A program made the translations under genes and the position numbers. This document shows, piece by piece, positions 1,811 through 64,000 of a stretch of DNA of 64,000 nt; position 1 is the stretch's first letter; each line of letters opens with the position of its first letter. The notes under the pieces are model-generated. The model was given only the letters and a program-made list of their open reading frames with translations. It was not told the origin of the DNA and did not search any database. Source of the DNA: a virus (taxonomy: Duplodnaviria; Caudoviricetes); IMG/VR virus record IMGVR_UViG_3300015050_000935, positions 5,095-69,094 of that record; one strand, given 5' to 3'.

Positions 1811-1811
1811 A

Positions 1812-4760: not shown

Positions 4761-4784
4761 ATTCCATTTCCACCTGATCGCGCG

Positions 4785-5521: not shown

Positions 5522-5533
5522 GGAAGGCGCTCC

Positions 5534-5977
5534 CTATTTCGTTGCAGGCCCCGGCAGCTTGCCGAGGGTTTTGATGTGCTTCTTTCGATTCTCGATCACC
5601 CATTCGTCAAGGATTTTGTGGCCCTTGTCCATATCTCCGCCGCCAATCTCGGCGACGCGCTTTGGGGAAATCACATACTCGCCATCGGCGGCCATGATCG
5701 GTACGCCCTGCGAATCCTCGCCGCCTTCACCGCCCAGCGGCTCTCCGTCGTCGCCAAACATTTCCTCAAGGATTTCGAGGCCGTTGGCGGTGTTGCCCTC
5801 GCCGAGGCTGGACACATGATCCGCAGGCAGCACATACGCGCCCGGCGGCACCTCGATCGGGACGTGATCGGCGCGGCCTCCGGTGGCCCCGGCCAGAGGC
5901 CCGACATGCACGCGGCCTCCGTCGGCGCGGCGCTGGCGCTTCACTTCACGGGCGATTCGCAGGGCTGCGTCTGTCAT
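5534..5977 (-). CDS. Virion-associated protein with RADGG...GGRAD.VP...GAYV and ADGEYVISP motifs
   Basis: Start chosen at 5977 (TGATG overlap with the upstream stop); motifs resemble the xxGG...GEFV module of tape-measure proteins. Confidence 0.65.
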   Translation of the reverse strand: MTDAALRIAREVKRQRRADGGRVHVGPLAGATGGRADHVPIEVPPGAYVLPADHVSSLGEGNTANGLEILEEMFGDDGEPLGGEGGEDSQGVPIMAADGEYVISPKRVAEIGGGDMDKGHKILDEWVIENRKKHIKTLGKLPGPATK

Positions 5978-6237
5978 CAGAATGTACTCAGGCTGGCTCG
6001 AACCCATGTGTTCGTCGCGACGCAAACATAGAAGTGGGTCGCATCATAAGCAACTTGTCCGGAGACGCCGGTGGATGAAGCCGTGGGAGGCACGCCAGAC
6101 CAGTCAGGGAATTTGGCGGCAATCTCTCGCAGGGTCTGGAGCGTCAGGCCGCCGTTCTGCGCCATCTGCTGCAACACGGTGACAAGATCGGTAACCGCGC
6201 CGCCCTGGCCGGGGCCGTTTGGGCCAACATCCGCCAT
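5977..6237 (-). CDS. Small tail-associated protein
   Basis: C-terminal PPTASSTGVSGQVAYDATHFYVCVATNTW, a segment common in phage tail proteins. Confidence 0.65.
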   Translation of the reverse strand: MADVGPNGPGQGGAVTDLVTVLQQMAQNGGLTLQTLREIAAKFPDWSGVPPTASSTGVSGQVAYDATHFYVCVATNTWVRASLSTF

Positions 6238-6240
6238 GTC

Positions 6241-8298
6241 TTATCTCCGCCCTGCGGTTGACCACCGGAAGCGCACGCGACCGAGGCGCCAGAAACTGTT
6301 CAGGTCCGAACTCTGCACCGTGATGCTCATTTGGCGGCCCCGAATACGGGTCGAGATATACTCCGTCGCCTGCGTGACTGTATAGGGGCCGTGGACCGTC
6401 GGCGTGTCGCCGGGGTAGTTCAGGACGTTGAACGACATGGTGAGTTGCGCAGTCTGCGCCGCCCCGTAGAACCCCCATTTCATGTCGGGGATAATCTGGT
6501 CGATGAACGCGAAATCCTCGCCCTCGGCGATGAAAAAATAACCGGTGGTGAAACTGGACACCATCGGCGCGCCGGCGGCGTTGTTCGTCGTCTCATGCTG
6601 GTAAACCACGCCGGTCGGCACCGCGCCGATCGGCGGTCCCAACACGGTCTGGTCGATCCACGCCGAACGCGGGAGCAGCCCGTTGTCCCATGGCGTTCCG
6701 GGCTCCGTCACATTCATCTTGACGTAGGAATCGCACTCGCCGTTGGCGCTGGCGGTCGATGGGTACAGCCAGCCGACCTCGTTGAACGGCGTGTTCGGCA
6801 TCGCCCGGATGTTCTGGATGAAATCCGTATTCAGATTTTGGAAAACGGCATCCCACACCGAACACGGCAGCACCGTGACGCCGCCCGAGTTGTAGACGTA
6901 GAAATTGGAGCGGCCCATCCAGTAGACGCTGCCGCGGAACTGCTGCGCCGCGTGGCTGGAGGCGAGCCCGGCCCCGGCGCCGATCTTGTTGAACCCGTAG
7001 GTGTTCGGATAGCCGACATACGACATGGCCCACAGGTCGAGGTCCGTCCAGATCAGGTTCTGGTTCGCGACAGCCATGCCGCCGACGATCATGGAGCCGA
7101 TCGGGATACGGAAATTTCCGGCCTGCGTGTTGGACAGCGCGCGCCATTCAAAGAAGTTTCCGACGTCGCACCACTGCACCAGCATCGGGTCCTGCTGGAC
7201 GCCGATGCCCTGCCCGCTCGCCGCATAGTCGATCGAGGACCCGTAGGCGACCAGGATTTGCTGCGAGGTGGAGACGAAGATGCCGCGATTGAAGATCGGG
7301 CCAGAGGCCACCAGCGAGGCATTGAAGAACCCGCCGGTCGGGTCCCAGTAATAAATCCCGCCGTCCTCGGGGCACGCCAGCACGATCTGGCCCCAGTTGT
7401 CGCTGGTCCAGTCCGTGGCCGAGATTTCGTCGCCAATCTGATTCGGGTTGACGACACCCGTCCCATAGCCGCCGTCGCCGTAACCGCCGAGGCCATAACC
7501 CGCCCCCGGCGGGGGCGGCCCGAGCGCGATGTAATAGACCAATTCCGCATCGCCGCCATTCATTGAGAACGAACCCGATGCGGTCGCCGTCTGCGCGGTG
7601 CTGATCGTGAACGTGTTGGGGTCCTGCACACTGTTGACGGTGTACGATCCCAATATGGTGACCCCGTTGGCCACGGTTGAAATCCCGAACACCACCGTGT
7701 CCAGTGTGGCGGTCAGGCCATGATCGTTTAGGGCCACCTCCACAATCGAACTGTTGGACGTCGTGGTGAAATCTGGGACGGCTCCGCCGTTGGAGGCGGT
7801 GGCTGTGGCGAGCGTGGCGGCCACAATGGTGTACGTGGTCACACCGGTGATGCTGGCGATCGGGTAGAGCCCGGAGAGGATGATGCCCCCCACCGAAATC
7901 GGCGTGTTGAACAGCACCGAGTCGTAGACTGTGACGTCCGCGATGTTGGGGTCGTCCACCTCCACGATCGCCGAACCGCTGATGGTCGAGAAGTCAGGCG
8001 GGAAGTCAGAAATCAGCGTTTGCGGAGTGATGTCCGTTAGGTTGCCCTCGGCGATCACGGCAAGCTGCGCGGTGGTCCCGACCAGAAGGTGGCTGCGCGC
8101 GTTCAGGTCATCCCATGCGTGCATGTCCCGCGGCACGCCGGCCAGCGACAACGGATAGAACGGCGTCCAGCCGCCATACTTCTGCGCCAGCCGATCCTTG
8201 AACCGGATCAACTGTCCCTGCGCGTAGCCAGCCTCCAGCAACGTCGGGGTGCGTTCGACGTTGATGCCGGGGACGAGTTGGACGCTGCCGAACGGCAT
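6241..8298 (-). CDS. Podovirus tail nozzle/stabilisation protein (tail tubular B-like), 685 aa
   Basis: PGINVERT...IRFKDRLAQKYGGW N-terminus, WRLGRVR C-terminus, size and position. Confidence 0.7.
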   Translation of the reverse strand: MPFGSVQLVPGINVERTPTLLEAGYAQGQLIRFKDRLAQKYGGWTPFYPLSLAGVPRDMHAWDDLNARSHLLVGTTAQLAVIAEGNLTDITPQTLISDFPPDFSTISGSAIVEVDDPNIADVTVYDSVLFNTPISVGGIILSGLYPIASITGVTTYTIVAATLATATASNGGAVPDFTTTSNSSIVEVALNDHGLTATLDTVVFGISTVANGVTILGSYTVNSVQDPNTFTISTAQTATASGSFSMNGGDAELVYYIALGPPPPGAGYGLGGYGDGGYGTGVVNPNQIGDEISATDWTSDNWGQIVLACPEDGGIYYWDPTGGFFNASLVASGPIFNRGIFVSTSQQILVAYGSSIDYAASGQGIGVQQDPMLVQWCDVGNFFEWRALSNTQAGNFRIPIGSMIVGGMAVANQNLIWTDLDLWAMSYVGYPNTYGFNKIGAGAGLASSHAAQQFRGSVYWMGRSNFYVYNSGGVTVLPCSVWDAVFQNLNTDFIQNIRAMPNTPFNEVGWLYPSTASANGECDSYVKMNVTEPGTPWDNGLLPRSAWIDQTVLGPPIGAVPTGVVYQHETTNNAAGAPMVSSFTTGYFFIAEGEDFAFIDQIIPDMKWGFYGAAQTAQLTMSFNVLNYPGDTPTVHGPYTVTQATEYISTRIRGRQMSITVQSSDLNSFWRLGRVRFRWSTAGRR

Positions 8299-8309
8299 CT
8301 GTCTCTTTC

Positions 8310-9311
8310 TTACGTCTTGATAAGCCAGACACCGGCGACGATGGATGGCTGCACATTGGCCGGCAGCGTCTGGGTCACACCACCATTGAGGTTGAGATTC
8401 GCCGTGATGCCGGTGGTTTTTGAACCGGTGTTGGTGTTCGTCTGCGAACTCGCCGACGCAATCGCCGGACCTCCGTTGTCGGATGACGAAAGGTTTGTCA
8501 GCGTATAGGTGTGGAAGTGCCCAGGGTCCACGATGTTAACGGTCACAACCTGATTCGGCAGGTCTGACCGCACCATTGCGGCCATCGTTTGCAGGCCGCC
8601 CGCTGCACCGATCGTCTGGCCATCAATGCCGCAGCCCGCAACAGTGATTCGGGTGCCCGTACCATCGTAGGCCAGAGGGACCCGGCCCTGCATGTCCGGC
8701 ACGCCGAACGTGGTGATGCCGTTGCCACCGAACTTGTTGCCGTACTTTGCGCCGAGCGCCGGATAATCGGCGACCAGATACGTGGCCGTGCCGTCGGCGA
8801 GCAGGTATGGCCGCTTGGTGCAAGCCGCGACCCACGCAGGGAGGCCGGTTTCGCCGCCCTCAAATTCCATCTTTCCAGGACGGCCCTCGATGCCCTCCAC
8901 AAACCGGACATTGGTGCCGTCGCAATAGACGCGCACCCGCGATCCCTGCGGCGTGGAAATCACCTCGCCCGAGCCCACGGCGCGGAAAATGACAAGGAAG
9001 GCGCCGGTGGTGATGTTCTCCAGCACCATATAGCCGGGCGTCGGCAGGGTGACGGTGACGTTGGCCGAGAGCGCGCCGGAAAATTGAATAACCGCGTTCT
9101 GCGATTGGACCGGCCCCGGGCCCGGCGTCGGCGTGAACCCGGCGGGAGCAGTGAGAGTGACGGGGACGTTGGACAGGGCAACATTGGCCACGCCGGCGAA
9201 CATGCCGTCAATTGCGGAAAAGTCCGCGTTGACCGGAGTGTCCCATGTGCCGGGGTTGCTGCCGCGCAGCGGGACTGCAAGCCCTACGTTGACTGTCTGT
9301 GGGTCTGCCAA
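8310..9311 (-). CDS. Tail fibre/tail-collar domain protein
   Basis: YLLADG...YPALGAKYG...GGNGITTFGVPDMQGRVP collar motif; TTG start after AGGAG. Confidence 0.8.
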   Translation of the reverse strand: MADPQTVNVGLAVPLRGSNPGTWDTPVNADFSAIDGMFAGVANVALSNVPVTLTAPAGFTPTPGPGPVQSQNAVIQFSGALSANVTVTLPTPGYMVLENITTGAFLVIFRAVGSGEVISTPQGSRVRVYCDGTNVRFVEGIEGRPGKMEFEGGETGLPAWVAACTKRPYLLADGTATYLVADYPALGAKYGNKFGGNGITTFGVPDMQGRVPLAYDGTGTRITVAGCGIDGQTIGAAGGLQTMAAMVRSDLPNQVVTVNIVDPGHFHTYTLTNLSSSDNGGPAIASASSQTNTNTGSKTTGITANLNLNGGVTQTLPANVQPSIVAGVWLIKT

Positions 9312-9323
9312 GGCACACTCCTA

Positions 9324-10031
9324 TTAAGTTCGCGGCGGCGTCGCCACCGGGTCCGGCTGTTTGCTGCTCCATCCTTCTGATGTGAATTTCTTGCGCAGTT
9401 CTTCGATCGAGGCCGATGGTAGCAGCTTTTGGAAGTGAGACTCCCAAGAAACTGCGGACTGCGGATCGTCGCCCTGTGCGGAAAAGTTCTTCTGATAGCC
9501 GCAGGCGAATACCATGCCCGCAGCAATCACGAGGTCCGGCAGGTTGACGGACAGGAACGTGGTCTGATTAGCCGCCGACATTGGCGCCGGCCGCTGCGTG
9601 CCGACGACTTCAACCTGATAGTTTCCGTCTGGCCATGGCCCGACCACGATGCTGGACTGGGTGATCATCCCGAACAACTGCGGCACCCCGGCCCCAGCCG
9701 AACTCGGATACAGCATGTCAATGACTTCTTTCGTCGCGGGCAGCAGCGGATTCCGCGTCCCCAATTCAGGGTCCGTTGTGCCCGCCGGGGTGATGACATT
9801 GATGTCCTCGATCACCACAAATCCGGTGGGAAGCGAGAAGTTGCGATTGCCTGACGTGAGCGCCGCCGATGAATTGCGCACGATCGTGGCCAGCAAATCG
9901 AGTTCGCGGTAAAGCCGCTGCTCCAGGTCGTCAATGATGTTCGGGAGCGCCAGCACATAGCCGGGGTCATCAACCGGCACCACCATGAGGTTGGCGATCG
10001 ACGTGGTGAATGTGTTGTACGTGAGCGACAT
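9324..10031 (-). CDS. Putative head-tail adaptor/tail tubular protein
   Basis: EQRLYRELDL and IVVGPWPD..Y.VEV motifs; position. Confidence 0.55.
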   Translation of the reverse strand: MSLTYNTFTTSIANLMVVPVDDPGYVLALPNIIDDLEQRLYRELDLLATIVRNSSAALTSGNRNFSLPTGFVVIEDINVITPAGTTDPELGTRNPLLPATKEVIDMLYPSSAGAGVPQLFGMITQSSIVVGPWPDGNYQVEVVGTQRPAPMSAANQTTFLSVNLPDLVIAAGMVFACGYQKNFSAQGDDPQSAVSWESHFQKLLPSASIEELRKKFTSEGWSSKQPDPVATPPRT

Positions 10032-55998: not shown

Positions 55999-56261
55999 GA
56001 ATCGATCACACCGAGATTGACGAACGCATTGCGGCCCGCGCCGACGAATTCCGCGCGGGCCAGATCACCGAGACGGTATTCCGGGCCGCAGTGTTCGCGC
56101 TCGGGAAGCGGGGCCAGGAACTGGACCTGATCGTCCGGCATCACCAGCAGTTAAAATACGAGGCATCACATGCGCCTGACCGGGCATCAGATCATGATGG
56201 CGGTGTGCCATCACATGAAAATCCACCCTGCGGAACTGCAAGGGAAAAGCCGCGACCCTAA
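55995..56261 (+). CDS. Hypothetical protein
   Basis: Coupled start; 3' end overlaps the next gene. Confidence 0.45.
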   Translation: MRIDHTEIDERIAARADEFRAGQITETVFRAAVFALGKRGQELDLIVRHHQQLKYEASHAPDRASDHDGGVPSHENPPCGTAREKPRP

Positions 56262-56481
56262 AATGGTCCGCGCCCGGCGCATCATCGCCCAGCGGATGAA
56301 GGCGCAGGACTACAAAATATCGATCATCGCGAAGCGCCTGAACCGGGATCACACCACGATCTATTCCTACCTGTTCCCGAATTTTCGCGCCGACAAGCAG
56401 CGCCGCTATTTGGAGAAAAAACGTGAAAAACTTGAAGCCCGAGCATTACAAGAACAGCAACATTCGGCCCATCCGGGCTGA
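56170..56481 (+). CDS. Stand-alone DnaA domain-IV-like HTH protein
   Basis: ELQGKSR...VRARR...ISIIAKRLNRDHTTIY (DnaA signature RDHTT). Confidence 0.8.
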   Translation: MRLTGHQIMMAVCHHMKIHPAELQGKSRDPKMVRARRIIAQRMKAQDYKISIIAKRLNRDHTTIYSYLFPNFRADKQRRYLEKKREKLEARALQEQQHSAHPG

Positions 56482-56605
56482 TGACGGCTCTACCGCGCGC
56501 GGGCTCATGATCGCCCTCGCCTCGATCGCCAAGGGACAGGCCAGCAAATCGCAGCAGATCGCGCCGCTGGAAAAATTCCCGCCACACCCCACGGAGGAAC
56601 GATGA
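56423..56605 (+). CDS. Possible small protein
   Basis: Fills the gap before the 56607 ORF. Confidence 0.35.
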   Translation: MKNLKPEHYKNSNIRPIRADDGSTARGLMIALASIAKGQASKSQQIAPLEKFPPHPTEER

Positions 56606-56606
56606 A

Positions 56607-57095
56607 ATGTCTGACGATTCCAACACTGCTGATCGCCTGCCTGTTGCTCCTGAGTTCGTGCAGCGAGCGGTACAGCGAGCGGATGAATCCGCAGCCGCCT
56701 CTGTGCCGGGCCGCGAACCAACGATGCTAGAGCAGATGACGGCTCGCACGCGGTTGCCGACCGGCGAGGAGCGCACCCCGATCGAGCGCGCGCGCGACGA
56801 CTACAACCAGTTGCGCACCGACAATATGATCCTGATTGACGAGGTGCGCGCGTTGACGATCGAGCGCGATGTGCTACAGGCGCAGTTGACCGAGGAGCGC
56901 AAGGACAAGCACCGAATCCAGGTCAAATACGAGGAATGCGCCAAGCGCCTCGGCTCGATCATGCAGAACATGCGGACAGCCGGCGACAGTATCTTGCAGG
57001 TGATTCGGGCCTCGCAGGAGGCGGTCAGCGACGAACCGGGCCTGACGGATTTTGCCCCATCGGGCCTCACGGCAGGAAAAATCCAGACCCGCTGA
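56607..57095 (+). CDS. Coiled-coil hypothetical protein
   Basis: GGAGGA RBS; last gene before the terminator. Confidence 0.6.
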   Translation: MSDDSNTADRLPVAPEFVQRAVQRADESAAASVPGREPTMLEQMTARTRLPTGEERTPIERARDDYNQLRTDNMILIDEVRALTIERDVLQAQLTEERKDKHRIQVKYEECAKRLGSIMQNMRTAGDSILQVIRASQEAVSDEPGLTDFAPSGLTAGKIQTR

Positions 57096-57111
57096 TGTTT
57101 CACGTGAAACG

Positions 57112-57146
57112 AAAAACCCGCCGCGGATTTCTCCGGGCGGGTTTTC
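57112..57146. terminator. Bidirectional terminator between the early operon and the tRNA array
   Basis: AAAAACCCGCC...GGCGGGTTTT inverted repeat. Confidence 0.8.
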
Positions 57147-57150
57147 TATT

Positions 57151-57224
57151 TGGCAGGAGTGGAAGGAATCAAACCCTCGCGAGCGGAGTTGGAGGCCGCC
57201 ATGCTGTCATTACATCACACTCCC
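57151..57224 (-). tRNA. tRNA-Trp(CCA)
   Basis: Cloverleaf, loop CTCCAAC, G73, CCA; C31xU39; T-loop TTTGATT. Confidence 0.85.
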
Positions 57225-57228
57225 AAAT

Positions 57229-57305
57229 TGGTACTGACGGACTGATTCGAACAGTCTGCTCCCGGTTCACAGCCGGACCGCCCGTTGCCATCGAGCATCG
57301 TCAGC
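57229..57305 (-). tRNA. tRNA-His(GTG), A73, no G-1
   Basis: Loop CTGTGAA; T-arm GACTG/TTCGAAT/CAGTC. Confidence 0.85.
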
Positions 57306-57306
57306 A

Positions 57307-57377
57307 TGGTCGCGCACCCCGGTTTCGATCCGGGCTGATGGCCTTATGAGAGCCACGTCCTCGCCAGAGGGAGCGCG
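57307..57377 (-). tRNA. tRNA(CAT), mini-D-arm class (Met or Ile2 unresolved)
   Basis: CGCGCTC/CCTC-TGGC-GAGG/GTGGCT-CTCATAA-GGCCAT/CAG/T-arm; 71 nt. Confidence 0.75.
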
Positions 57378-57380
57378 GGT

Positions 57381-57452
57381 TGGCTGGGGTGGTCGGTGTC
57401 GAGCCGACCGCATCAGGCTTCAAAGGCCCAACTCCGCGCCGGCGGCACCCCG
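57381..57452 (-). tRNA. tRNA-Gln(TTG), mini-D-arm class
   Basis: Loop CTTTGAA, C1xA72, G73. Confidence 0.8.
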
Positions 57453-57458
57453 TTGAAT

Positions 57459-57533
57459 TGGCACTCCCTGCGGGTATCGATCCCGCTTCTACGGTGTGAA
57501 AAACCGCAATCCTAGCCAGTAGACGAAGGGAGC
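57459..57533 (-). tRNA. tRNA-Glu(TTC)
   Basis: Loop TTTTCAC, Glu-type D-stem GTCT. Confidence 0.85.
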
Positions 57534-57537
57534 ATGA

Positions 57538-57611
57538 TGGTGCGGGCTGCGAGGCTCGAACTCGCGTCTCTTGGTTGGAAGCCAAGGGTCCTACCTCTGA
57601 ACGAAGCACGC
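57538..57611 (-). tRNA. tRNA-Gly(TCC), A73
   Basis: CTTGG-CTTCCAA-CCAAG. Confidence 0.85.
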
Positions 57612-57639
57612 ATTTTTATGTCAAAAAATCGCATTAAAA

Positions 57640-57727
57640 TGGCGGAAGGCCGGAGACACGATCACCACACCGTCGCCGGTGCCATGCCCTTAGCAGGGGC
57701 CGCCAGCGCCTTGCTGGTTGACCTTCC
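57640..57727 (-). tRNA. tRNA-Ser(GCT)
   Basis: Loop CTGCTAA, long variable arm, G73; weak T-arm. Confidence 0.8.
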
Positions 57728-57728
57728 A

Positions 57729-57805
57729 TGGTGCTCGCGGGAGGGATCGAACCTCCATCGTCCAATTACGGTGTCCCGCTTAGGAGGCGGGGCCGGTACG
57801 CGAGC
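57729..57805 (-). tRNA. tRNA-Arg(CCT), D-armless with D-loop-like variable arm
   Basis: GCTCGCG-TACCGGC-CCCGC-CTCCTAA-GCGGG-ACACCGTAATTGGACGAT-GGAGG-TTCGATC-CCTCC-CGCGAGC-ACCA. Confidence 0.75.
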
Positions 57806-57809
57806 ATGT

Positions 57810-57884
57810 TGGCCGTCCCGCGAGGACTCGAACCCCGATTACCCGCTTAGAAGGCAGGCGCCTGTCCAGTTGGCCGACGGGACG
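57810..57884 (-). tRNA. tRNA-Arg(TCT)
   Basis: Canonical; D-loop AACTGGAC (A20). Confidence 0.9.
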
Positions 57885-57885
57885 A

Positions 57886-57959
57886 TGGAGTCGCCAGCAG
57901 GATTTCAACCTGCCTGTCCGGGGTTGCAATCCGGCGCGTAGTCACTCCGCCATGGCGAC
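57886..57959 (-). tRNA. tRNA-Cys(GCA)
   Basis: Loop TTGCAAC, U73. Confidence 0.85.
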
Positions 57960-57964
57960 AGAAT

Positions 57965-58034
57965 TGGCTGCGGACGAAAGACTTGAACTTTCATCACCCG
58001 GTTCAGAGCCGGGCTTACTCCCTGAGTATCCGCA
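57965..58034 (-). tRNA. tRNA-Gln(CTG), mini-D-arm class
   Basis: TGCGGAT/ACTC-AGG-GAGT/CCCGG-CTCTGAA-CCGGG; U1-A72, G73; 70 nt. Confidence 0.8.
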
Positions 58035-58037
58035 ATT

Positions 58038-58118
58038 TGGCCTGCACGGCAGGATTCGAACCCGCATCTTCCTCCAGTTAGCTTACTCCCGGTTCGTAGC
58101 CGGGGGGCTTACGTGCAG
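58038..58118 (-). tRNA. tRNA-Arg(ACG), D-armless with D-loop-like variable arm
   Basis: CTGCACG-TAAGCCC-CCCGG-CTACGAA-CCGGG-AGTAAGCTAACTGGAGGAAGAT-GCGGG-TTCGAAT-CCTGC-CGTGCAG-GCCA. Confidence 0.75.
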
Positions 58119-58122
58119 ATAT

Positions 58123-58197
58123 TGGCACTGCTGGCGGGTACTGACCCCGCGCCTGCCGGGTGAGAACCGACGATCCTGACCATTAGACGACAGCAGT
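58123..58197 (-). tRNA. tRNA-Glu(CTC)
   Basis: Loop TTCTCAC; T-loop GTCAGTA. Confidence 0.85.
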
Positions 58198-58201
58198 ATG
58201 T

Positions 58202-58280
58202 TGGCTCCGGTCGGCGGGATCGAACCGCCCTAATCACCGCTTAACAGGCGGGTCCATGCACCAAGCTCGGCTTGACCGGA
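58202..58280 (-). tRNA. tRNA-Asn(GTT)
   Basis: TCCGGTC/GACCGGA, loop CTGTTAA, G73. Confidence 0.85.
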
Positions 58281-58287
58281 ATAAAAA

Positions 58288-58359
58288 TGGTGGACCGACG
58301 GGGTAACGCTCCCCGCGCGACAATCTTGCAAGGATCGTCTGCACCCTTGTGCTCGGCCC
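58288..58359 (-). tRNA. tRNA-Ala(TGC), mini-D-arm class
   Basis: G3:U70, A73, 7-bp anticodon stem GACGATC/GATTGTC, T-loop AGCGTTA. Confidence 0.8.
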
Positions 58360-58432
58360 GTATTGGCCCCGGTGCGCAGCAATAGCACCGGTGGTCGCTA
58401 TAGGTCCCCTTTTCCACGGCGACCTCCTGAAA

Positions 58433-58508
58433 TGGTGCCCAGTCGTGGTTCCTCCCCACGCTCTCCGAGGCTTCAACTCGGCGCTTTCAATAGATTAGCT
58501 TACTGGGC
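58433..58508 (-). tRNA. tRNA-Phe(GAA)
   Basis: CCGAG-TTGAAGC-CTCGG; T-loop GGAGGAA; D-loop lacks GG. Confidence 0.8.
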
Positions 58509-58513
58509 TTGAT

Positions 58514-58587
58514 TGGTGCGGACACGGGGAGTCGAACCCCGGCTGAGAGTGTGGCACACTCCCCGACTTCCGTAATCTTTTGTCCGC
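58514..58587 (-). tRNA. tRNA-Gly(GCC), A73
   Basis: Loop GTGCCAC; reduced D-loop. Confidence 0.75.
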
Positions 58588-58681
58588 GTGTTGCTGGCCG
58601 CTGGCGCGCCCGTGGGCGTCTCGGCGTCGAGGCTGGAAGGGTGGCCAACCCATCCGCAGCGCACTCTCCAGCGGCGCATTC

Positions 58682-58769
58682 TGGTCCCCCGCCGTGGTAA
58701 CGATCCACGCCAGCCCGGAGGCGTCGGTTTTACAGACCGTGCCGCGTCCTTAGCGGCCTACCGAGGGGA
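58682..58769 (-). tRNA. tRNA-Tyr(GTA)
   Basis: Loop CTGTAAA, long variable arm, T-loop ATCGTTA. Confidence 0.85.
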
Positions 58770-58772
58770 ATT

Positions 58773-58848
58773 TGGTTGCGCAGGGAGGATTTGAACCCCC
58801 GACCTCCAAGTTATGAGCCTGGCGAGCTAACCGCTGCTCTACCGCGCA
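58773..58848 (-). tRNA. tRNA-Met(CAT), initiator-like
   Basis: GAGC/GCTC D-stem, CCAGG-CTCATAA, ends CGCAACCA as in alphaproteobacterial fMet. Confidence 0.85.
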
Positions 58849-59013
58849 ATAAACGGTGCCGGGCTATCAACTCCCGAGCGATGGTCCGCAGTTCATCCGT
58901 GCGGTCATGACAGCATCCGGCGATCAACCCGGATGGCCCCCCTTACGAGAGGTCTTGAGCGCCGCCTTTCGACGGACAAAAAGGGTTACCCCGATTTTCC
59001 GTCTTAGGCAACA

Positions 59014-59101
59014 TGGCGGACAGCCGAGGAATCGAACCCCCATCGCTTGCGCGAGCCACGGTTTTCAAGACCGCTGCCAGACCATTCCGGCTGGACTGTC
59101 C
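59014..59101 (-). tRNA. tRNA-Ser(TGA)
   Basis: Loop CTTGAAA, long variable arm, G73. Confidence 0.9.
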
Positions 59102-59106
59102 ATTGG

Positions 59107-59183
59107 TGGTCGTCACGGGATGACTCGAACACCCGGCCTCGGCCTTCGGAGGGCCGCGCTCTATCCAGTTGAGCTACGTGACG
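59107..59183 (-). tRNA. tRNA-Arg(CCG)
   Basis: Canonical; followed by a second encoded CCA (59104-59106). Confidence 0.9.
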
Positions 59184-59528
59184 TCATTTCTTTTTCGGCG
59201 CCGGGAAAAACTTCCGGGTCCGCTGATCTATAATCAGACTGTCATCCCGAACGATGCCCGGCTTTGTCAGCGTCGTGTGATCCATCGCCTGCTCCAACGC
59301 CAGATAGGCGTTGCCAAGGTCGGGAGTTGACGGGTTCACAAACAGCACGTCGAGAGCAATCGGGTGGTCGATCACTTCGGTGATGCCAATTTTGGCGAGC
59401 GCCTGGCGGATGAACACCCGGTACTGCTGGATGGTCCGCAGGTGCATCCGGCGATGCGGCGCGTCGTGAATCCAAAGCGACAGTTTCGGGATGTCCCGAT
59501 CGTCGTCGTACTCGGCAATGACGCGCAT
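59184..59528 (-). CDS. RusA-fold-like protein inside the tRNA array, catalytic residues degenerate
   Basis: ATG 59528 after GGAGG; PDLGNAYLALEQAMD...GIVRDDSLI versus the RusA consensus PDxDNxxKxxxD...DD. Confidence 0.65.
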   Translation of the reverse strand: MRVIAEYDDDRDIPKLSLWIHDAPHRRMHLRTIQQYRVFIRQALAKIGITEVIDHPIALDVLFVNPSTPDLGNAYLALEQAMDHTTLTKPGIVRDDSLIIDQRTRKFFPAPKKK

Positions 59529-59539
59529 GGCGTCCTCCA

Positions 59540-59616
59540 TGGTGGGCGGCCCCGGATTCGAACCGGGGTCGGACCTGTTATGAGCAGGTGGCACTGGGCC
59601 GCTGTGCTAACCGCCC
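59540..59616 (-). tRNA. tRNA(CAT), probably Ile2 (lysidine)
   Basis: GGGCGGT/GCCGCCC acceptor, A73, loop CTCATAA. Confidence 0.8.
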
Positions 59617-59727
59617 GATAGCAGCCCTGCTCCCGGCGCGACCGGGTTCGAGCCCGCCGACAGGCGTAGCGCCATGGTGCGCGTTGCCGACGGGCTCAGG
59701 AGGCGTCCACGACGCGCAGGGCAAAAT

Positions 59728-59806
59728 TGGTCTGCGTGGCAAGATTCGAACTTGCGATCCCCTGATTCCAAGTCAGGTAGGGACGACCAGACTCCCCTAC
59801 ACGCAG
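59728..59806 (-). tRNA. tRNA-Pro(TGG)
   Basis: C1-G72, A73, loop CTTGGAA. Confidence 0.9.
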
Positions 59807-59813
59807 ATGAAAA

Positions 59814-59888
59814 TGGCGCGACTTGCGGGTGCTGACCCCGCGACCTTCCCCGTGACAGGGGGATGCTCCGCCGTTGAGCTAAAGCCGC
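59814..59888 (-). tRNA. tRNA-Asp(GTC)
   Basis: Loop CTGTCAC, G73; T-loop GTCAGCA. Confidence 0.9.
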
Positions 59889-59894
59889 ATGAAA

Positions 59895-59981
59895 TGGTGC
59901 GCGTCGGGTGAATTGAACACCCACGGGATTGCTCCCACAGCCGTCTCAGGACTGCCTGTCTACCGGTTCCAGCAGACGCGC
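59895..59981 (-). tRNA. tRNA-Leu(GAG)
   Basis: Loop CTGAGAC, long variable arm, A73. Confidence 0.9.
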
Positions 59982-59984
59982 AAA

Positions 59985-60058
59985 TGGTGGACCACCACGG
60001 TACTGACCCGTGTTCACGGGGTTAAGAGGCCCGTGCATCACCTTAATGCTTGTGGTCC
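59985..60058 (-). tRNA. tRNA-Lys(CTT)
   Basis: Loop CTCTTAA; C31xC39; T-loop GTCAGTA. Confidence 0.85.
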
Positions 60059-60062
60059 GCGA

Positions 60063-60137
60063 TGGTGAACCCGCTCGGTACTGCCCCGAGTTCGCATGGG
60101 TTAAAAGGCCAGCGTGCTACTTTCCTACTCCGGGTCC
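60063..60137 (-). tRNA. tRNA-Lys(TTT)
   Basis: Loop CTTTTAA; C31xC39; T-loop GGCAGTA. Confidence 0.8.
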
Positions 60138-60139
60138 GA

Positions 60140-60265
60140 TTAGGACCGGGGTTTGTGGCGCGCGGCGAGCACCGCCATGCGCTCCTGCACGCGGCGCAGC
60201 GTCTCCTGGCACGCTTCGGAAAGCGTGTGCGTGCCCGTCACCGGGTCGGTGGTGGTGCCCTTCAT
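60140..60265 (-). CDS. Small ORF (41 aa) inside the tRNA array
   Basis: AGGAG RBS; MKGTTTDPVTGTHTLSEACQETLRRVQERMAVLAARHKPRS. Confidence 0.55.
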   Translation of the reverse strand: MKGTTTDPVTGTHTLSEACQETLRRVQERMAVLAARHKPRS

Positions 60266-60278
60266 GTCGCTCTCCTGT

Positions 60279-60352
60279 TGGTAGTCCTAGCCGGTTACGA
60301 TCCGACGTCTGCCGGTTATCAGCCGGCTGCACTGCCATTGTGCTATAGGACC
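60279..60352 (-). tRNA. tRNA-Ile(GAT)
   Basis: GCCGG-CTGATAA-CCGGC; T-loop ATCGTAA. Confidence 0.9.
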
Positions 60353-60356
60353 ATGA

Positions 60357-60431
60357 TGGTGCGCCTTGCAGGTGCTGCCCCTGCGGCCTCCTGCATGTCA
60401 CGCAGGCGATCTGCTGCTGATCTAAAGGCGC
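60357..60431 (-). tRNA. tRNA-Val(GAC)
   Basis: Loop GTGACAT; T-loop GGCAGCA. Confidence 0.85.
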
Positions 60432-60551
60432 CCGAAATTCGATCGGCAGTCTGGGAGCAACCCCTATGCCGGTCCCGCTGCCGTCCGCAGCCAGTTTTTG
60501 GACCGGAAGCAACCCCGATCTTACTGGCCAGCCGTGACCTTGCAGCGATGC

Positions 60552-60626
60552 TGGTACACCGTGAGGATGTCGAAACCCCGGCCTCCCCCGTGTGAAAGGG
60601 GCGCTCTGCCTCTGAGCTAACGGTGC
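60552..60626 (-). tRNA. tRNA-Val(CAC)
   Basis: Loop TTCACAC, A73. Confidence 0.85.
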
Positions 60627-60632
60627 GTGAAG

Positions 60633-60721
60633 TGGTGCCCGGCGCAGGAGTCGAACCCGCACGGTCCGCGAGGACCAGATCGCTTTTGAGGCGTCGGCGT
60701 CTACCGTTCCGCCAGCCGGGC
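60633..60721 (-). tRNA. tRNA-Leu(CAA)
   Basis: Loop CTCAAAA, long variable arm. Confidence 0.9.
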
Positions 60722-60726
60722 ATGAT

Positions 60727-60812
60727 TGGTGTCGGCGGGGAGACTCGAACTCCCAAAGCTACGCGGTCTGAACGCGCACGGTATGCCAAATTCCCGATGA
60801 AGCCACGCCGAC
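60727..60812 (-). tRNA. tRNA-Leu(CAG), enlarged D region and short variable arm
   Basis: GCGCG-TTCAGAC-CGCGT; variable region only AGCTTT. Confidence 0.8.
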
Positions 60813-60815
60813 AAA

Positions 60816-60890
60816 TGGTGCCCGGTGCAGGTTACGATCCTGCGCCTGTTCCTTACCAAAGAACCGGTCTGCCATTGATCCTAACCGGGC
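60816..60890 (-). tRNA. tRNA-Thr(GGT)
   Basis: Loop TTGGTAA; T-loop ATCGTAA. Confidence 0.9.
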
Positions 60891-60926
60891 GCGTATCTCG
60901 GCGTTGTAGGCGCGCATTGGCGCCTC

Positions 60927-61038
60927 GTTCGTTCCCGTAGTGCAAAGGGGTATCCTACCAACTAGACGAACCCGCAGGTTTCCCCGCAAGTGCAGGGCTC
61001 GAACCTGCGTCTCCCCAACCCTACGGCTCTCGCCGAAC
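60927..61038 (-). ncRNA. Circularly permuted tRNA mimic, YrlA-type Y RNA candidate
   Basis: Order: long stem 5' strand, GGGG, AGAC, T-arm GCAGG-TTCGAGC-CCTGC, acceptor capped by GAAA, D-arm GTCT-AGTTGGTA-GGAT, CCCC, long stem 3' strand. Confidence 0.7.
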
Positions 61039-61112
61039 TGGTGCCCCAGCCGGTAATCGAAACCGGCTCTGCCGCTTACGAGGCGGCTGCATCGCCTCAA
61101 TGCTTCAAGGGC
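61039..61112 (-). tRNA. tRNA-Thr(CGT)
   Basis: GCCGC-CTCGTAA-GCGGC. Confidence 0.9.
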
Positions 61113-61123
61113 AAATCTGTTCT

Positions 61124-61198
61124 TGGTGCTGGCTCGGTGAATCGAACACCGGTCATTCGCTGTACAAAGGCGACGGTCTGCCACTGGCCTAAGCCAGC
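61124..61198 (-). tRNA. tRNA-Thr(TGT)
   Basis: Loop TTTGTAC; first tRNA of the array. Confidence 0.85.
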
Positions 61199-61592
61199 AC
61201 GAAAAACAGTTTTTCGGTGAGCGTGAAACCAGTCCACCGGCATCGCCGGGTCCTACACGTCGCACCTAGCTGTCGGGACGCGCGTGCGCGGCGACGATCA
61301 GCGGCTGTTCGCTTAGGCGGAGAGGGTGCAACTGGATTCCGAGTGGGGAGTGTTGCGGGTCGTTTCTCTCTGCCTTTCGGCAGAGGGCGAGCCCGCTGCC
61401 GTTTAACCTAGTATCCTGCGCCCTTTGGGCTGCATCGGGTGTTCCAAGCCCGCAAACGCGCATACGCCGTCCAGCCGATTGCTCGACCAGATGGAGGTAC
61501 GCGTGTATGTGGCGGCTTGTAACATCGTCGTTCCTAGCGGGGCGGCAGGCCCCGTGTGTGGGCGAAGCGTGTACGCCCCATTCCGAATCACG

Positions 61593-61994
61593 TCAACCGG
61601 GATTTAACGGTCGGCGCCGATTTTTGTTCGATCGTCCGCGAATTAGTTTGGCGAGCCCGTTCATTTCGCCGCGCATGGCGCTCATTTCGCCGCTGATGTG
61701 GCCCAACGCCCGCTCGATCCCATCCACGTCGCGTTGGATTTCCTGCGCCTGCACTCCGATCGTGGTGAGGCCGGTAAGGATGGTCACGATCCACAGGCTG
61801 TCCGGTGCGATTTCAGTCGGTGCCGATACCTGCGCCGGCGCAGGGGCCGCGCGAAACATTTTGATTCCCGCGCTCAGTATCGGGAGGGCCAGTGCGAGGA
61901 CGATGAAAAACGCGACTAGGTTCTGCGAGGGCGGGAGCGTGCTGATAGTCGCTATTGCCCAGTCACCAAGTTTTTCCGCTATTTTTTCCCACAT
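61593..61994 (-). CDS. Membrane protein with C-terminal coiled coil (lysis-cassette associated)
   Basis: Two hydrophobic segments and a heptad tail. Confidence 0.55.
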   Translation of the reverse strand: MWEKIAEKLGDWAIATISTLPPSQNLVAFFIVLALALPILSAGIKMFRAAPAPAQVSAPTEIAPDSLWIVTILTGLTTIGVQAQEIQRDVDGIERALGHISGEMSAMRGEMNGLAKLIRGRSNKNRRRPLNPG

Positions 61995-62466
61995 AGCCCC
62001 TCGCCAGCGCCCGGTACATCGAAATCAGTTCAAAAAACGCGAGGACACTGTAGACGGGTATCCCGACTGACGGCGGCGTGCCGTTCACCTCGAAAAGCAG
62101 AACCAGCGCGGCGGCCATTTGTGCCCAGACTACAGCGCCGACAAGGGCACCAGCCGCGCGGATGACCGGCCCGTAGAATTTCCAGTGACCGTTCGCGATC
62201 AACGCCGCAATTCTGGCCACCCCGATTGTCACGTAAACCCCGACGATGGTTTCGGCTGACACCACCGTCAGGAGATACCTGAAAGCGCCGGCCTCGATCG
62301 ACCGCGGCCACAGCACCACGAACAGCCCGATGCCCAGCATCATGATGGTGGTGGCCAACTCGAATAGACGGCTCTCGAAATGCCGAATGAGGGCCTTTAC
62401 AGGCCACTCAACCGCATATTCGACGTTGGACAGCAGCCGCATGGTCTGGGCCTGCATGATGGTCAC
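61963..62466 (-). CDS. Multi-pass membrane protein (holin-like candidate)
   Basis: About four TM helices; lysis cassette. Confidence 0.6.
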   Translation of the reverse strand: MTIMQAQTMRLLSNVEYAVEWPVKALIRHFESRLFELATTIMMLGIGLFVVLWPRSIEAGAFRYLLTVVSAETIVGVYVTIGVARIAALIANGHWKFYGPVIRAAGALVGAVVWAQMAAALVLLFEVNGTPPSVGIPVYSVLAFFELISMYRALARGYVGKNSGKTW

Positions 62467-62702
62467 ACGTCTTGATCGGTTTGCGGGGGCAGCGGCTTGT
62501 TCAGCCGGGCCTCCAACGCCGCGATGCTGGCTTTCAACTGCTCGGCCTGCTCCGGCGTCACATCCGCGCCGCCGAACAGGTCGTTGTAGATCGCCTCGGC
62601 AAACGGCGCGGCGTCCTCCACGGTCTGGATGATCTTCGGGGTGAGGTCCACGGCGGTTTTCACCACGGCGGCGATCAGGCTGACGATTGCTGCTGTGTCC
62701 AT
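62463..62702 (-). CDS. Small lysis-cassette protein
   Basis: ATG 62702 (MDTAAIVSLIAAVV...). Confidence 0.6.
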   Translation of the reverse strand: MDTAAIVSLIAAVVKTAVDLTPKIIQTVEDAAPFAEAIYNDLFGGADVTPEQAEQLKASIAALEARLNKPLPPQTDQDV

Positions 62703-62703
62703 G

Positions 62704-63144
62704 TCAGGAAATCCCGTTGCTTGATTTCGTGTTGAGGAAAACATTGAACGCTCGTTGCGCCGCGTTGATGTACGACGCCGCGTTCAATGTCGGGTTTGCC
62801 CGGATGAACTCATACGCCTGATCCAGTGCGAACCGGACCTTTTGCTGGGCGTCCATCAGTTTCACGGTCACCGACCGTTTGGCGCAAATGTTCGATGCGC
62901 TGAACGGGCGCGTCTTTGTGCAGGGGTTCGTGTCGTACAGTTCGCGGTAGGCGACCGCGCCGACGAGCGCGAGCCCATAGGCGTTCTCGATGTCGCTGAT
63001 GTTCCCGGTGGTGACGGGATTCTGGATCGGCGCGGCACCCACGCCGATGCCGAGTTTGGCGAGGTCCTTGGAACAGCCGCCCGATGACAACGCCAGCACG
63101 GCGATGACTGAAAGGGCGGCGAGTCGGCTGACGATGCTGCGCAT
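62704..63144 (-). CDS. Lipoprotein (spanin-like candidate)
   Basis: ATG 63144 after GGAG; signal peptide ending LSSGG-C. Confidence 0.65.
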   Translation of the reverse strand: MRSIVSRLAALSVIAVLALSSGGCSKDLAKLGIGVGAAPIQNPVTTGNISDIENAYGLALVGAVAYRELYDTNPCTKTRPFSASNICAKRSVTVKLMDAQQKVRFALDQAYEFIRANPTLNAASYINAAQRAFNVFLNTKSSNGIS

Positions 63145-63157
63145 GGTGTTCTCCGGG

Positions 63158-63505
63158 TTAGGCCGCATTGGCGGTGGCGGCAACTTTAGCCTCCGCCGCC
63201 AAGGTTGGGACGATCTTGTTCTGCGTCGGGTCCATCGCCAGCGTGGCGAGGGTTTTATTGGCGTAGCCATTGACCGCGATCCCTTCCACGCCGGGCATGT
63301 TTTTCACATCGAGCACGGTGTTGCCCTGGCTCGTGAGCACGGCCATCACGGACTGGATCATCAGGTTGCCGAGGCCGGCGACCGAAACGATAGACTTGGC
63401 CACACCCGTCCCGAACAGGTCGGTGAGTTGTGTGGTGGAAATCATCAGCACGCTCAGGATGGCGCCGACGATCGAGAAAATCTGTTTTCCGTTGAGGTTG
63501 CCCAT
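63158..63505 (-). CDS. Holin-like two-TM protein
   Basis: Two TM helices; lysis cassette. Confidence 0.6.
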   Translation of the reverse strand: MGNLNGKQIFSIVGAILSVLMISTTQLTDLFGTGVAKSIVSVAGLGNLMIQSVMAVLTSQGNTVLDVKNMPGVEGIAVNGYANKTLATLAMDPTQNKIVPTLAAEAKVAATANAA

Positions 63506-63553
63506 GATCGGCCCCTAATTTTGAGAACAGCGGCGCCCATGGTATTGACCCCC

Positions 63554-64000
63554 ATGGACAAGAAACATCACAACGCAACGCATGGGATGGAGAAATCCCC
63601 GGAATACCGCATCTGGATAGATATGCGGCGCAGGTGCCACCAACCCCAACGTCCTGACTATCACAGATACGGCGGTCGCGGCATTACCGTATGCGATAGA
63701 TGGCGATTCGCGGGAAGTGGTGGGTTCGCCAATTTCTACGCCGACATGGGTTCTCGCCCGCTGGGCCACACTATAGAGCGACGTGACAATGATGGCCCAT
63801 ACAGCCCGGAGAATTGCTACTGGGCGACCAAGAAGGCGCAAGCAGCCAACACTCGCACCAACCGGATGATAGAATTTCGCGGCCAGCACATGACCGTCAC
63901 AGCGGCGTGCGACTTGGCCGGGATATTCTCGGGCGTAGTGTTCCAACGGCTGAACCGTGGATGGGGCGCCGAACGCGCGCTTACCACTCCAGCATTGAAG
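63554..64000 (+). CDS. HNH homing endonuclease (partial, runs off the right edge)
   Basis: Not in the ORF track. Manual translation THGMEKSPEYRIW.DMRRRC...YGGRGITVCDRW...DMGSRP...TIERRDNDGPYSPENCYWAT. Confidence 0.85.
   Translation, partial: MDKKHHNATHGMEKSPEYRIWIDMRRRCHQPQRPDYHRYGGRGITVCDRWRFAGSGGFANFYADMGSRPLGHTIERRDNDGPYSPENCYWATKKAQAANTRTNRMIEFRGQHMTVTAACDLAGIFSGVVFQRLNRGWGAERALTTPALK

Follow-up and report, generated by a model that had tools for sequence, protein, structure and literature searches.

A near-complete tRNA array in a 69-kb phage genome as a probable copy of a mobile cassette of alphaproteobacterial phages

The DNA analysed here (the window) is a stretch of 64,000 nucleotides (nt) that corresponds to bases 5095-69094 of the IMG/VR virus record IMGVR_UViG_3300015050_000935, a 69,094-bp phage genome with direct terminal repeats (DTRs) that is rated 100% complete. 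On its minus strand, at positions 57151-61198, the window contains an array of 35 tRNA genes together with two open reading frames (ORFs) and gaps with tRNA remnants, at a density of 8.6 tRNA genes per kb; the count and both end coordinates are identical to those given in an earlier note made from the letters alone. We propose that the locus is a copy of a horizontally mobile cassette of the 'L-array' type, found mainly in alphaproteobacterial phages, which gives its carrier a nearly complete decoding set of its own, and we assign this reading a probability of about 0.6. The array would be transcribed as one or a few precursors that are cut by host RNase P and 3' nucleases, and the resulting tRNAs would be charged by host synthetases. 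The phage would then possess an almost full decoding set that suits its GC-rich codons and may sustain late translation during a depletion of host tRNAs or their cleavage by tRNA-targeting defences, while a RusA-like protein encoded inside the array, and perhaps a nearby HNH endonuclease too, may promote the recombinational spread of the cassette. The notion of phage tRNAs that replace or outlast host tRNAs attacked by defences is already in the literature (PMC10264068, PMC11555353, PMC11464382, PMC13096335), and the SegB nuclease promotes inheritance of the tRNA region of T4 (PMC2330249). Two features are truly unexpected: the wide spread of the cassette as a unit, and the presence in it of arginine tRNAs without a D arm, whose structure is supported by covariation.

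Distribution of the cassette in phages and bacterial chromosomes

Relatives of the window phage, as judged by their large terminase subunit (TerL), form a large group in IMG/VR with genomes of 60-71 kb. Among the 20 that were examined, 14 have no tRNA gene and three have one or two; arrays are present only in G011 and in G001 and G002, the latter two being the closest relatives (TerL 59% identical). All three arrays have the gene order of the window, which reads in one-letter amino acid code T T T L L V V I K K L D P M [ORF] R S M Y G F A N E R (P) Q C R R S G E Q M H W. The same order was found in the fragment G027, in G028 (76 kb, DTRs, TerL 50% identical) and in G026, a genome of 84.7 kb with DTRs that has five of 70 genes in common with the window phage. 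The genomes of the related phages with this order measure 70-76 kb. The comparison of G026 with the window phage gave no terminase match at E ≤ 0.001 and no match of a portal, head or other core virion protein to the window gene set, the sole structural match being one of 53 residues in a tail-like protein. One of the five common genes is the ORF inside the array (62% identity), and the G026 array is colinear with that of the window over 1070 nt at 73.5% identity, a figure that exceeds the one for the related G028. The cassette also occurs in viral contigs of about 104 kb.

Single genes of the array have histories of their own. The D arm GCATTAAGGTGATGC of tRNA-Lys(CTT) (59985-60058; mismatch C31xC39; relaxed ARAGORN, Rfam 34 bits), used as a search motif, retrieves 17 viral contigs, all of them tRNA-rich and with G026, G027 and G028 in their number; it recurs exactly in tRNA-rich viral contigs (L084-L100) with differing array orders, a GC content of 0.34-0.61 and lengths of up to 184 kb, which suggests that this tRNA belongs to a phage-specific tRNA-Lys lineage. 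Orthologue assignment by simple similarity proved too noisy and was replaced by anticodon-anchored extraction. Identical or nearly identical single genes are found amid arrays that are about 72% identical, namely Thr(TGT) in comparison with G027 and Lys(TTT) and Phe(GAA) in comparison with G002, and we therefore infer recombination between arrays.

The cassette is not confined to phages. A scan of one genome per species located the intra-array ORF at four places, two of which are long chromosomal contigs, one from Bradyrhizobium sp. BR13661 and the other from an alphaproteobacterial metagenome-assembled genome. Both chromosomal copies carry the syntenic array, flanked by ordinary metabolic genes, and in both an RtcB RNA-ligase gene lies inside the array or directly after it; no RtcB gene was found in the window phage, G001, G002, G026 or G028. 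PdxA, an Fe alcohol dehydrogenase and luciferase-like oxygenases are encoded in the flanks of the Bradyrhizobium locus (L230, NZ_JARXWB010000006.1, 200094-210435) and of L229. Of 401 genomes sampled from the order to which the Bradyrhizobium carrier belongs, the carrier alone has the ORF. A search of 50,697 isolate phage records returned no near match to the array, only distant matches to single tRNAs, and no tblastn match to the ORF. The synteny with G026, the copies in two bacterial chromosomes and the 14 of 20 TerL relatives free of tRNA genes argue for horizontal spread of the array rather than local accretion. A near-complete tRNA set can pass, in the form of a single 4-kb module, from one phage to an unrelated one and also enter the chromosomes of bacteria, and tRNA content is therefore a poor guide to phage ancestry or genome size.

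Arrays of a comparable kind are known. L-arrays, described in 2021, are one-strand arrays of dozens of supernumerary tRNA genes with attached nuclease genes; they pass horizontally between bacteria, plasmids and phages and often lie beside rtcB (PMC8421152). The window cassette resembles them in its dozens of one-strand tRNA genes and its horizontal spread, with rtcB as a neighbour in its chromosomal copies and with predicted nuclease genes linked to it or embedded in it. It differs from them in being found mainly in phages, as the single occurrence of the ORF in the sampled order indicates, and in including D-armless tRNAs, and, whereas cyanobacterial L-arrays have an upstream HNH gene, it has its own conserved order and a RusA-like ORF. 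Within this known kind, the horizontally mobile long tRNA arrays of bacteria and phages, the array constitutes a new family.

It also falls under the definition of virus tRNA clusters (at least 15 genes and at least two per kb) given by Morgado and Vicente in 2019, with 35 genes in 4,048 bp. The clusters in that survey comprise 15-37 genes in genomes of 72-617 kb, include all 20 isotypes in eight of 228 cases and reach at most 23 tRNAs in podoviruses (PMC6409571). The window array likewise has all 20 isotypes, and the window phage is probably virulent, as are most of the surveyed carriers. In contrast, its genome of 69 kb lies just under that of the smallest carrier, and its 35 genes come near the maximum of 37 and exceed the podovirus maximum. 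The earlier remark that arrays this large usually belong to much larger phages thus holds for isolates but not for metagenomic genomes, in which complete phages of 68-85 kb carry 20 to more than 30 tRNAs. The tRNA regions of T4 and T5, known for the homing endonuclease SegB and for tRNAs that evade anticodon nucleases (PMC2330249, PMC10264068, PMC13096335), are similar in having a nuclease gene inside the cluster and in the proposed protection of translation from tRNA-targeting defences. Their nucleases are of the GIY-YIG type, whereas the one described here is predicted to be RusA-like, and the window set is nearly complete, compared with about eight tRNAs in T4 and about 24 in T5.

The RusA-like ORF (59184-59540, minus strand) encodes 118 amino acids (aa), and the A of its ATG is also the final A of the CCA of the preceding tRNA, the elongator-like tRNA(CAT) 'Met-a' (59540-59616; ARAGORN default, Rfam 49 bits). 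Its relatives in a clustered protein collection amount to 187 clusters with 59-79% identity. Genomic contexts of these relatives were drawn from IMG/VR and GTDB loci, and the ORF occupies the same slot in all seven viral loci retrieved, where it lies upstream of Arg(CCG) or Arg(TCG), and in four genome loci; a tRNA-Met was detected directly before it in five of the seven viral loci and none was detected in the other two (L123 and L124). The viral contigs with the ORF are up to 104 kb long and have a GC content of 0.44-0.62. The protein itself has no Pfam or PHROG match, PF05866 included at E ≤ 0.01, and a profile search of PDB sequences was equally without a match; PF05866 is matched by one of 46 members of the ORF family (E 0.0097). 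An initial AlphaFold2 (AF2) model built from a 26-sequence alignment had a predicted local distance difference test (pLDDT) score of 59.6 and gave meaningless fold matches. The AF2 model with a pLDDT of 93 has Escherichia coli RusA as its top Foldseek matches (2h8c and 1q8r; probability 0.92-0.98, TM score 0.50-0.57, E 0.02-0.05), and VIA-align ranks 1q8r_A first (Z 6.8, root-mean-square deviation 2.8 Å over 91 residues) with the next match at Z 4.7. A second candidate nuclease gene, an HNH endonuclease ORF on the plus strand (62990-64000; PHROG phrog_3377, E 1e-48), lies 1.8 kb upstream of the array and reaches the end of the record, so that nuclease genes are predicted both inside the cassette and linked to it. 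The HNH ORF overlaps minus-strand ORFs chosen by third-position GC (GC3), and its position parallels that of the upstream HNH gene of cyanobacterial L-arrays.

Such an arrangement could also be that of a selfish mobile cassette, spread by nuclease-assisted recombination between co-infecting phages with little benefit to the carrier, in which the tRNAs serve mainly as homology and cargo. The embedded RusA-like ORF and the HNH endonuclease nearby would suit this explanation, as would the patchy distribution within the phage family, the transfer to an unrelated phage, the mosaic of near-identical single genes shared with G027 and G002, and the tRNA remnants in the gaps. We nevertheless consider it quite improbable, because pervasive compensatory changes in the stems and the retention of identity elements argue for selection on tRNA function, and because the anticodon sets are nearly complete in every full copy of the cassette.

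tRNA identity, hosts and decoding capacity

Among the identity elements, those of tRNA-His(GTG) (57229-57305; ARAGORN default) are the most telling with regard to the host. In the window gene and ten orthologues, G-1 is missing (the preceding base is T or C) and G1·U72 and A73 are present in 11 of 11, while across these 11 genes 13 of 20 pairs have undergone double compensatory change. G1-U72 and A73 without G-1 constitute a rare tRNA-His identity of an alphaproteobacterial subgroup, whose histidyl-tRNA synthetase (HisRS) is orthogonal to the standard enzyme (PMC3064791). Because of this orthogonality, the cassette tRNA-His would be chargeable only in such alphaproteobacterial hosts. The gene therefore points to alphaproteobacteria as the hosts, in agreement with the chromosomal copies and with the distant relatives of the terminase, which are found in Roseobacter, Paracoccus and Rhizobium phages. 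This identity rule links the whole cassette family to a defined host group and may offer a host-prediction handle for many uncultured phages.

The other marks were read against established identity rules. They comprise G3·U70 in Ala, U73 in Cys, a weak or mismatched 1-72 pair in Gln (U1-A72 in Gln(CTG), C1xA72 in Gln(TTG)), C1-G72 in Pro, and G73 in Asp, Asn, Gln, Glu, Ser and Trp; the discriminator bases agree with bacterial identity rules in 33 of the 35 genes. These elements fit charging by host synthetases, and selection is visible in the aligned genes in that the stems covary while the synthetase identity elements stay fixed.

In a cloverleaf parse, all 35 genes have six or seven of seven acceptor pairs, four or five of five T-stem pairs and an encoded CCA, and all 35 anticodon loops have 7 nt with T33 and a purine at position 37. 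The anticodons span all 20 amino acids and include three CAT genes, one of which, 'Met-b' (58773-58848; ARAGORN default, Rfam 63 bits), has a D arm, a T loop (TTCAAAT) and an acceptor end (T1-A72, A73) like those of bacterial initiators. Leu(TAG), Leu(TAA) and Val(TAC) are absent, and Ala, Pro and the UCN Ser box are each served by one U34 species. On the coverage of amino acids, the encoded CCA, the initiator-like Met, the three missing species and the single U34 tRNAs for Ala and Pro, the earlier note had been accurate. Codon usage was assessed from 15,347 codons in genes called by third-position GC; 90.6% of these codons are within reach of the set by strict wobble. Coverage would rise to 58 of 61 sense codons if each single U34 species (Ala, Pro, Ser) could decode its whole box, and the remaining CTA, TTA and GTA account for 0.39% of codons and are the rarest in the phage, as had been supposed for the codons of the missing tRNAs. 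Modified U34 reads whole boxes for Pro, Ala and Val in enterobacteria.

The wobble base tracks the GC content across cassette copies. Detections of Leu(CAG) are confined to copies with 59-65% GC. Leu(TAG) belongs mostly to copies with 54-56% but recurs in both chromosomal copies, which have 62% GC; Leu(TAA) was seen a single time, at 56%, and neither Val(TAC) nor Lys(TTT) shows a clear trend. Both this behaviour and the fact that the three unread codons are the rarest would be expected if the array provided codon-usage compensation only, with tRNAs topping up those codons that the phage uses more than its host and the large set reflecting a broad difference in preference. However, the array covers all 20 amino acids, including Trp and Met, for which there is no synonymous choice, and includes an initiator-like tRNA, yet it has no G34 tRNA for GCC, one of the most used codons (43.8 per 1000). 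The same cassette is also found in a Bradyrhizobium chromosome contig of similar local GC (about 61-62%), and most relatives of the window phage manage on 0-2 tRNAs, which leaves compensation alone a rather unlikely explanation. Taking the codon coverage and the trend of the wobble base together, we conclude that the set is both nearly complete and composition-tuned. The contrast drawn earlier between a replacement set and codon tuning was therefore too sharp, although a near-complete decoding set is supported by the anticodon content and its use as a replacement set is plausible.

Several observations weigh against a mobile cassette that supplies a nearly complete decoding set. Depletion or cleavage of host tRNAs is an assumption. 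Strict wobble leaves 9.4% of the phage codons unread (GCC/GCT, CCC/CCT and TCC/TCT in addition to the rare CTA, TTA and GTA), among them the very frequent GCC, and independence from host tRNAs therefore rests on an assumed modification of U34. About nine genes are non-canonical and may work poorly, and a look for promoters of the sigma-70 type gave none. In the array-linked subgroup of the ORF family, moreover, an invariant PDLGN places Gly at the position of the second catalytic Asp, which departs from the acidic residues of RusA; the correspondence with E. coli RusA residues is deduced from the motif. The wider family has the RusA-type consensus PDLDN...DD, and the DD motif is kept in the array-linked subgroup. 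Because of the Gly substitution and the lack of a Pfam match, nuclease activity of the RusA-like protein is uncertain.

Arginine tRNAs without a D hairpin and other unusual members

tRNA-Arg(ACG) (58038-58118; Rfam 30 bits) and tRNA-Arg(CCT) (57729-57805; weak Rfam tRNA-Sec match, 26.6 bits; same layout in L119, L120 and L123) have only seven nt between the acceptor and anticodon stems, and a segment of 18-22 nt containing AAYTGGA lies 3' of the anticodon arm. A pattern for the odd Arg(ACG) was found in 107 viral stretches, which reduce to 57 distinct sequences, all with a terminal CCA. On the alignment of these 57 sequences we tested a three-armed model that consists of a 7-bp acceptor stem, TA, a short helix in which positions 10-12 pair with 37-39, an anticodon stem of 6 bp that contains a bulged A, and a normal T arm. 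The model pairs 96% of the alignment cells, with double changes at 17 of 21 pairs; no shuffle out of 500 was as good, and a register shift abolished the signal. Pair 11-38, which the search pattern had left free, is C-G in 52 sequences and G-C in five. The D-armless Arg(ACG) genes lie in tRNA arrays, at 104 IMG/VR loci with a GC content of 0.26-0.61. An unannotated one is present in the cultured 131-kb Mesorhizobium phage Cp1R7A-A1 (L234, MT188704.1, 37605-37681), directly after an annotated tRNA-Asp, and this phage offers a laboratory system in which to study it.

We tentatively suggest that Arg(ACG) and Arg(CCT) may be working decoders with a three-armed architecture in bacterial translation, kept for escape from host enzymes that recognise the normal body of tRNA-Arg while arginyl-tRNA synthetase (ArgRS) still charges them. 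The helix formed by positions 10-12 and the three bases after the anticodon arm would lengthen the anticodon helix, and D-loop bases of the GG/A20 type would be relocated to the connector of the T arm. D-armless mitochondrial tRNAs (mt-tRNAs) of animals, such as mt-tRNA-Ser(AGY), also have three arms, no D hairpin and a lengthened anticodon helix (PMC4013460, PMC9427863). In contrast to these, the tRNAs described here come from a phage of bacteria, have a GG-containing D-loop-like segment, AACYGGA, 3' of the anticodon arm and a canonical T arm, and have their CCA encoded. If the three-armed tRNAs decode, bacterial ribosomes and synthetases accept a wider range of tRNAs than is known, and the genes would be natural cases of tRNA bodies reshaped under tRNA-targeting immunity.

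A different explanation holds that the non-canonical members (D-armless Arg, Lys(TTT) and the tRNAs with a mini D arm) are decoys that soak up host tRNA-cleaving or tRNA-modifying enzymes and do not decode. These tRNAs combine altered bodies with canonical, highly conserved anticodon loops, and the anticodon loop is where colicin-D-like and PrrC-like enzymes act on tRNAs for Arg and Lys. We regard decoys as very improbable, since the D-armless Arg(ACG) is the only reader in the array of CGC, CGT and CGA (42 per 1000 codons), and since the acceptor stem, the discriminator base and CCA are all retained. The slots themselves also argue against it: in other copies of the cassette they are filled by canonical Arg(ACG) or Arg(CCT), the latter in eight other arrays, so that in the Arg(ACG) slot the D-armless form replaces a canonical tRNA.

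The D arm is atypical or absent in about eight genes, namely Arg(ACG), Arg(CCT), Ala, Met-c, both Gln, Lys(TTT) and Leu(CAG), and a ninth gene, Phe(GAA), is odd in its T loop. A mini D arm with a 4-bp stem, a 4-nt loop and little or no 8-9 spacer is found in tRNA-Ala(TGC) (58288-58359; no spacer; relaxed ARAGORN), in the 71-nt tRNA(CAT) 'Met-c', which may be Met or Ile2 (57307-57377; relaxed ARAGORN; kept in G001, G002 and G011), in tRNA-Gln(CTG) (57965-58034; ARAGORN default, Rfam 32 bits) and in tRNA-Gln(TTG) (57381-57452; relaxed ARAGORN). Non-standard T loops occur in tRNA-Glu(CTC) (GTCAGTA; 58123-58197; Rfam 43.5 bits, relaxed ARAGORN), tRNA-Val(GAC) (GGCAGCA; 60357-60431; Rfam 46 bits, custom scan), tRNA-Thr(GGT) (ATCGTAA; 60816-60890; ARAGORN default, Rfam 47 bits) and tRNA-Phe(GAA) (GGAGGAA; 58433-58508; custom scan), for which the near-identical gene in G002 and a Phe gene in the same slot of relatives are available for comparison. 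tRNA-Lys(TTT) (60063-60137; Rfam 15 bits) has a 3-bp anticodon stem and a poor D arm, and its core recurs in nine other arrays with compensating changes in the acceptor and T stems. The fourth slot holds a tRNA(CAG), Leu by its anticodon, that relaxed ARAGORN miscalls as Thr (60727-60812). In most arrays the Leu(CAG) or Leu(TAG) tRNA of this slot has a short variable loop and a class I shape of about 77 nt (L081, L082, L123, L124, L229 and L230 were compared), whereas the window and L119 share an oversized D region instead, which in the window measures 28 nt and is accompanied by a 6-nt variable loop. Standard tRNA finders overlook a quarter of the array genes, including the widespread D-armless tRNA-Arg.

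Layout of the array and neighbouring genes

The 35 genes were assembled in four steps. ARAGORN at default settings, a check proposed in the earlier note, gave 21 tRNAs; Rfam RF00005 at or above the gathering score added Val(GAC), Trp, Glu(CTC), Arg(ACG) and Lys(CTT), for 26; relaxed ARAGORN settings added Met-c, Gln(TTG), Ser(GCT), Ala, Tyr and Leu(CAG), for 32; and a custom cloverleaf scan with orthologue comparison added Phe(GAA), Lys(TTT) and Arg(CCT). Standard detectors thus recover 26 of the 35, and the nine remaining genes are structurally unusual.

The genes that have not yet been located follow here in the order of transcription, all on the minus strand, with the Rfam score in bits where there is one; ARAGORN found them at default settings unless stated otherwise. 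The array begins with tRNA-Thr(TGT) (61124-61198; 53) and tRNA-Thr(CGT) (61039-61112; 44). Beyond the fourth slot come tRNA-Leu(CAA) with a long variable arm (60633-60721; 38), tRNA-Val(CAC) (60552-60626; 49) and tRNA-Ile(GAT) (60279-60352; 60), and the two Lys genes are followed by tRNA-Leu(GAG), again with a long variable arm (59895-59981), tRNA-Asp(GTC) (59814-59888; 52) and tRNA-Pro(TGG) (59728-59806; 58). On the far side of the RusA-like ORF lie tRNA-Arg(CCG) (59107-59183; 62), tRNA-Ser(TGA) with a long variable arm (59014-59101), tRNA-Tyr(GTA), likewise with a long variable arm (58682-58767; relaxed ARAGORN, with Tyr in the same slot of relatives), tRNA-Gly(GCC) (58514-58587; 39.5) and tRNA-Asn(GTT) (58202-58280). 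The remainder consists of tRNA-Cys(GCA) (57886-57959; 48), tRNA-Arg(TCT) (57810-57884; 42.5), tRNA-Ser(GCT) with a long variable arm (57640-57727; relaxed ARAGORN, with similar genes in G002 and L123 at an alignment score of 0.95), tRNA-Gly(TCC) (57538-57611; 56), tRNA-Glu(TTC) (57459-57533; 46) and, at the end, tRNA-Trp(CCA) (57151-57224; 44.5, relaxed ARAGORN).

The description of the array as tightly packed on one strand is right as to the strand but not as to the packing, since two protein genes and six gaps of 73-165 nt interrupt it. Besides the RusA-like ORF there is a 41-aa ORF (60140-60265, minus strand) with a Shine-Dalgarno site and a C-terminus, ...KPRS, in common with G001; it has no family match. 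The gaps at 60891-61038, 60432-60551, 59617-59727, 58849-59013 and 58588-58681 contain pieces resembling acceptor or T arms without a full cloverleaf or CCA, for example a GGCGCTA...TCGCGCC unit plus a T arm at about 59620-59670, and these fragments are probably decayed tRNA genes. A further short ORF (MEKGTYSDHRCYCCAP..., 58360-58459, minus strand) with a Shine-Dalgarno-like AGGAGG begins in the gap between Phe and Ala and extends into tRNA-Ala, and its first 17 codons are kept in G002.

At its upstream end the array adjoins a conserved motif, TGGTTTC-N13-15-ACTGTTYTTCGT (61199-61245, minus strand), which is kept in G001 and G002 and may be a promoter or processing site. The block conserved at 61255-61300 belongs to a 65-aa ORF, of which it forms the C-terminus. 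A leader-peptide attenuator in front of the array was looked for, but there was no codon-matched small ORF, and no terminator-like site upstream of the first tRNA or on the minus strand. The array ends at an intrinsic terminator, a hairpin with a U run on the minus strand (57105-57146; dG -26.5 kcal/mol, z -5.1), which also faces the plus-strand genes converging on the array. In an Rfam search of 56000-62500 (E ≤ 1), all matches were of the tRNA type apart from three hits at chance level, and no ribozyme family appeared.

The converging plus-strand genes near the array form a recombination module with an exonuclease, RecT, NinB and a DnaQ-like exonuclease. Upstream of the array, the genes on its own strand encode membrane proteins without a family assignment. 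Family scans of the neighbouring ORFs recognised no lysis gene, and the earlier placement of the array downstream of lysis genes is not confirmed, its upstream neighbours being these membrane proteins and the HNH endonuclease.

A PHROGs scan detected a terminase, a portal, a weak match to a major head protein, tail proteins and large ejection proteins in the genome, while the 20 long ORFs scanned yielded no match to a tape-measure or sheath gene and most genes had no assignment. This gene content fits a podovirus but does not prove the morphotype; of the description as a small podophage, the size is borne out by the complete 69,094-bp genome. An N4-like phage had been suspected from the DTR genome of about 70 kb and a giant ORF, and was rejected, as the large ORFs match ejection or virion proteins with a lytic domain and not the virion RNA polymerase. 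Two virion genes are very large (1951 aa and 982 aa) and lie at window positions 1-4760 (minus strand) and upstream in the genome (G000 1049-9854); the 1951-aa protein has a segment resembling a lytic transglycosylase or an endolysin, and the 982-aa protein matches a DNA ejection protein.

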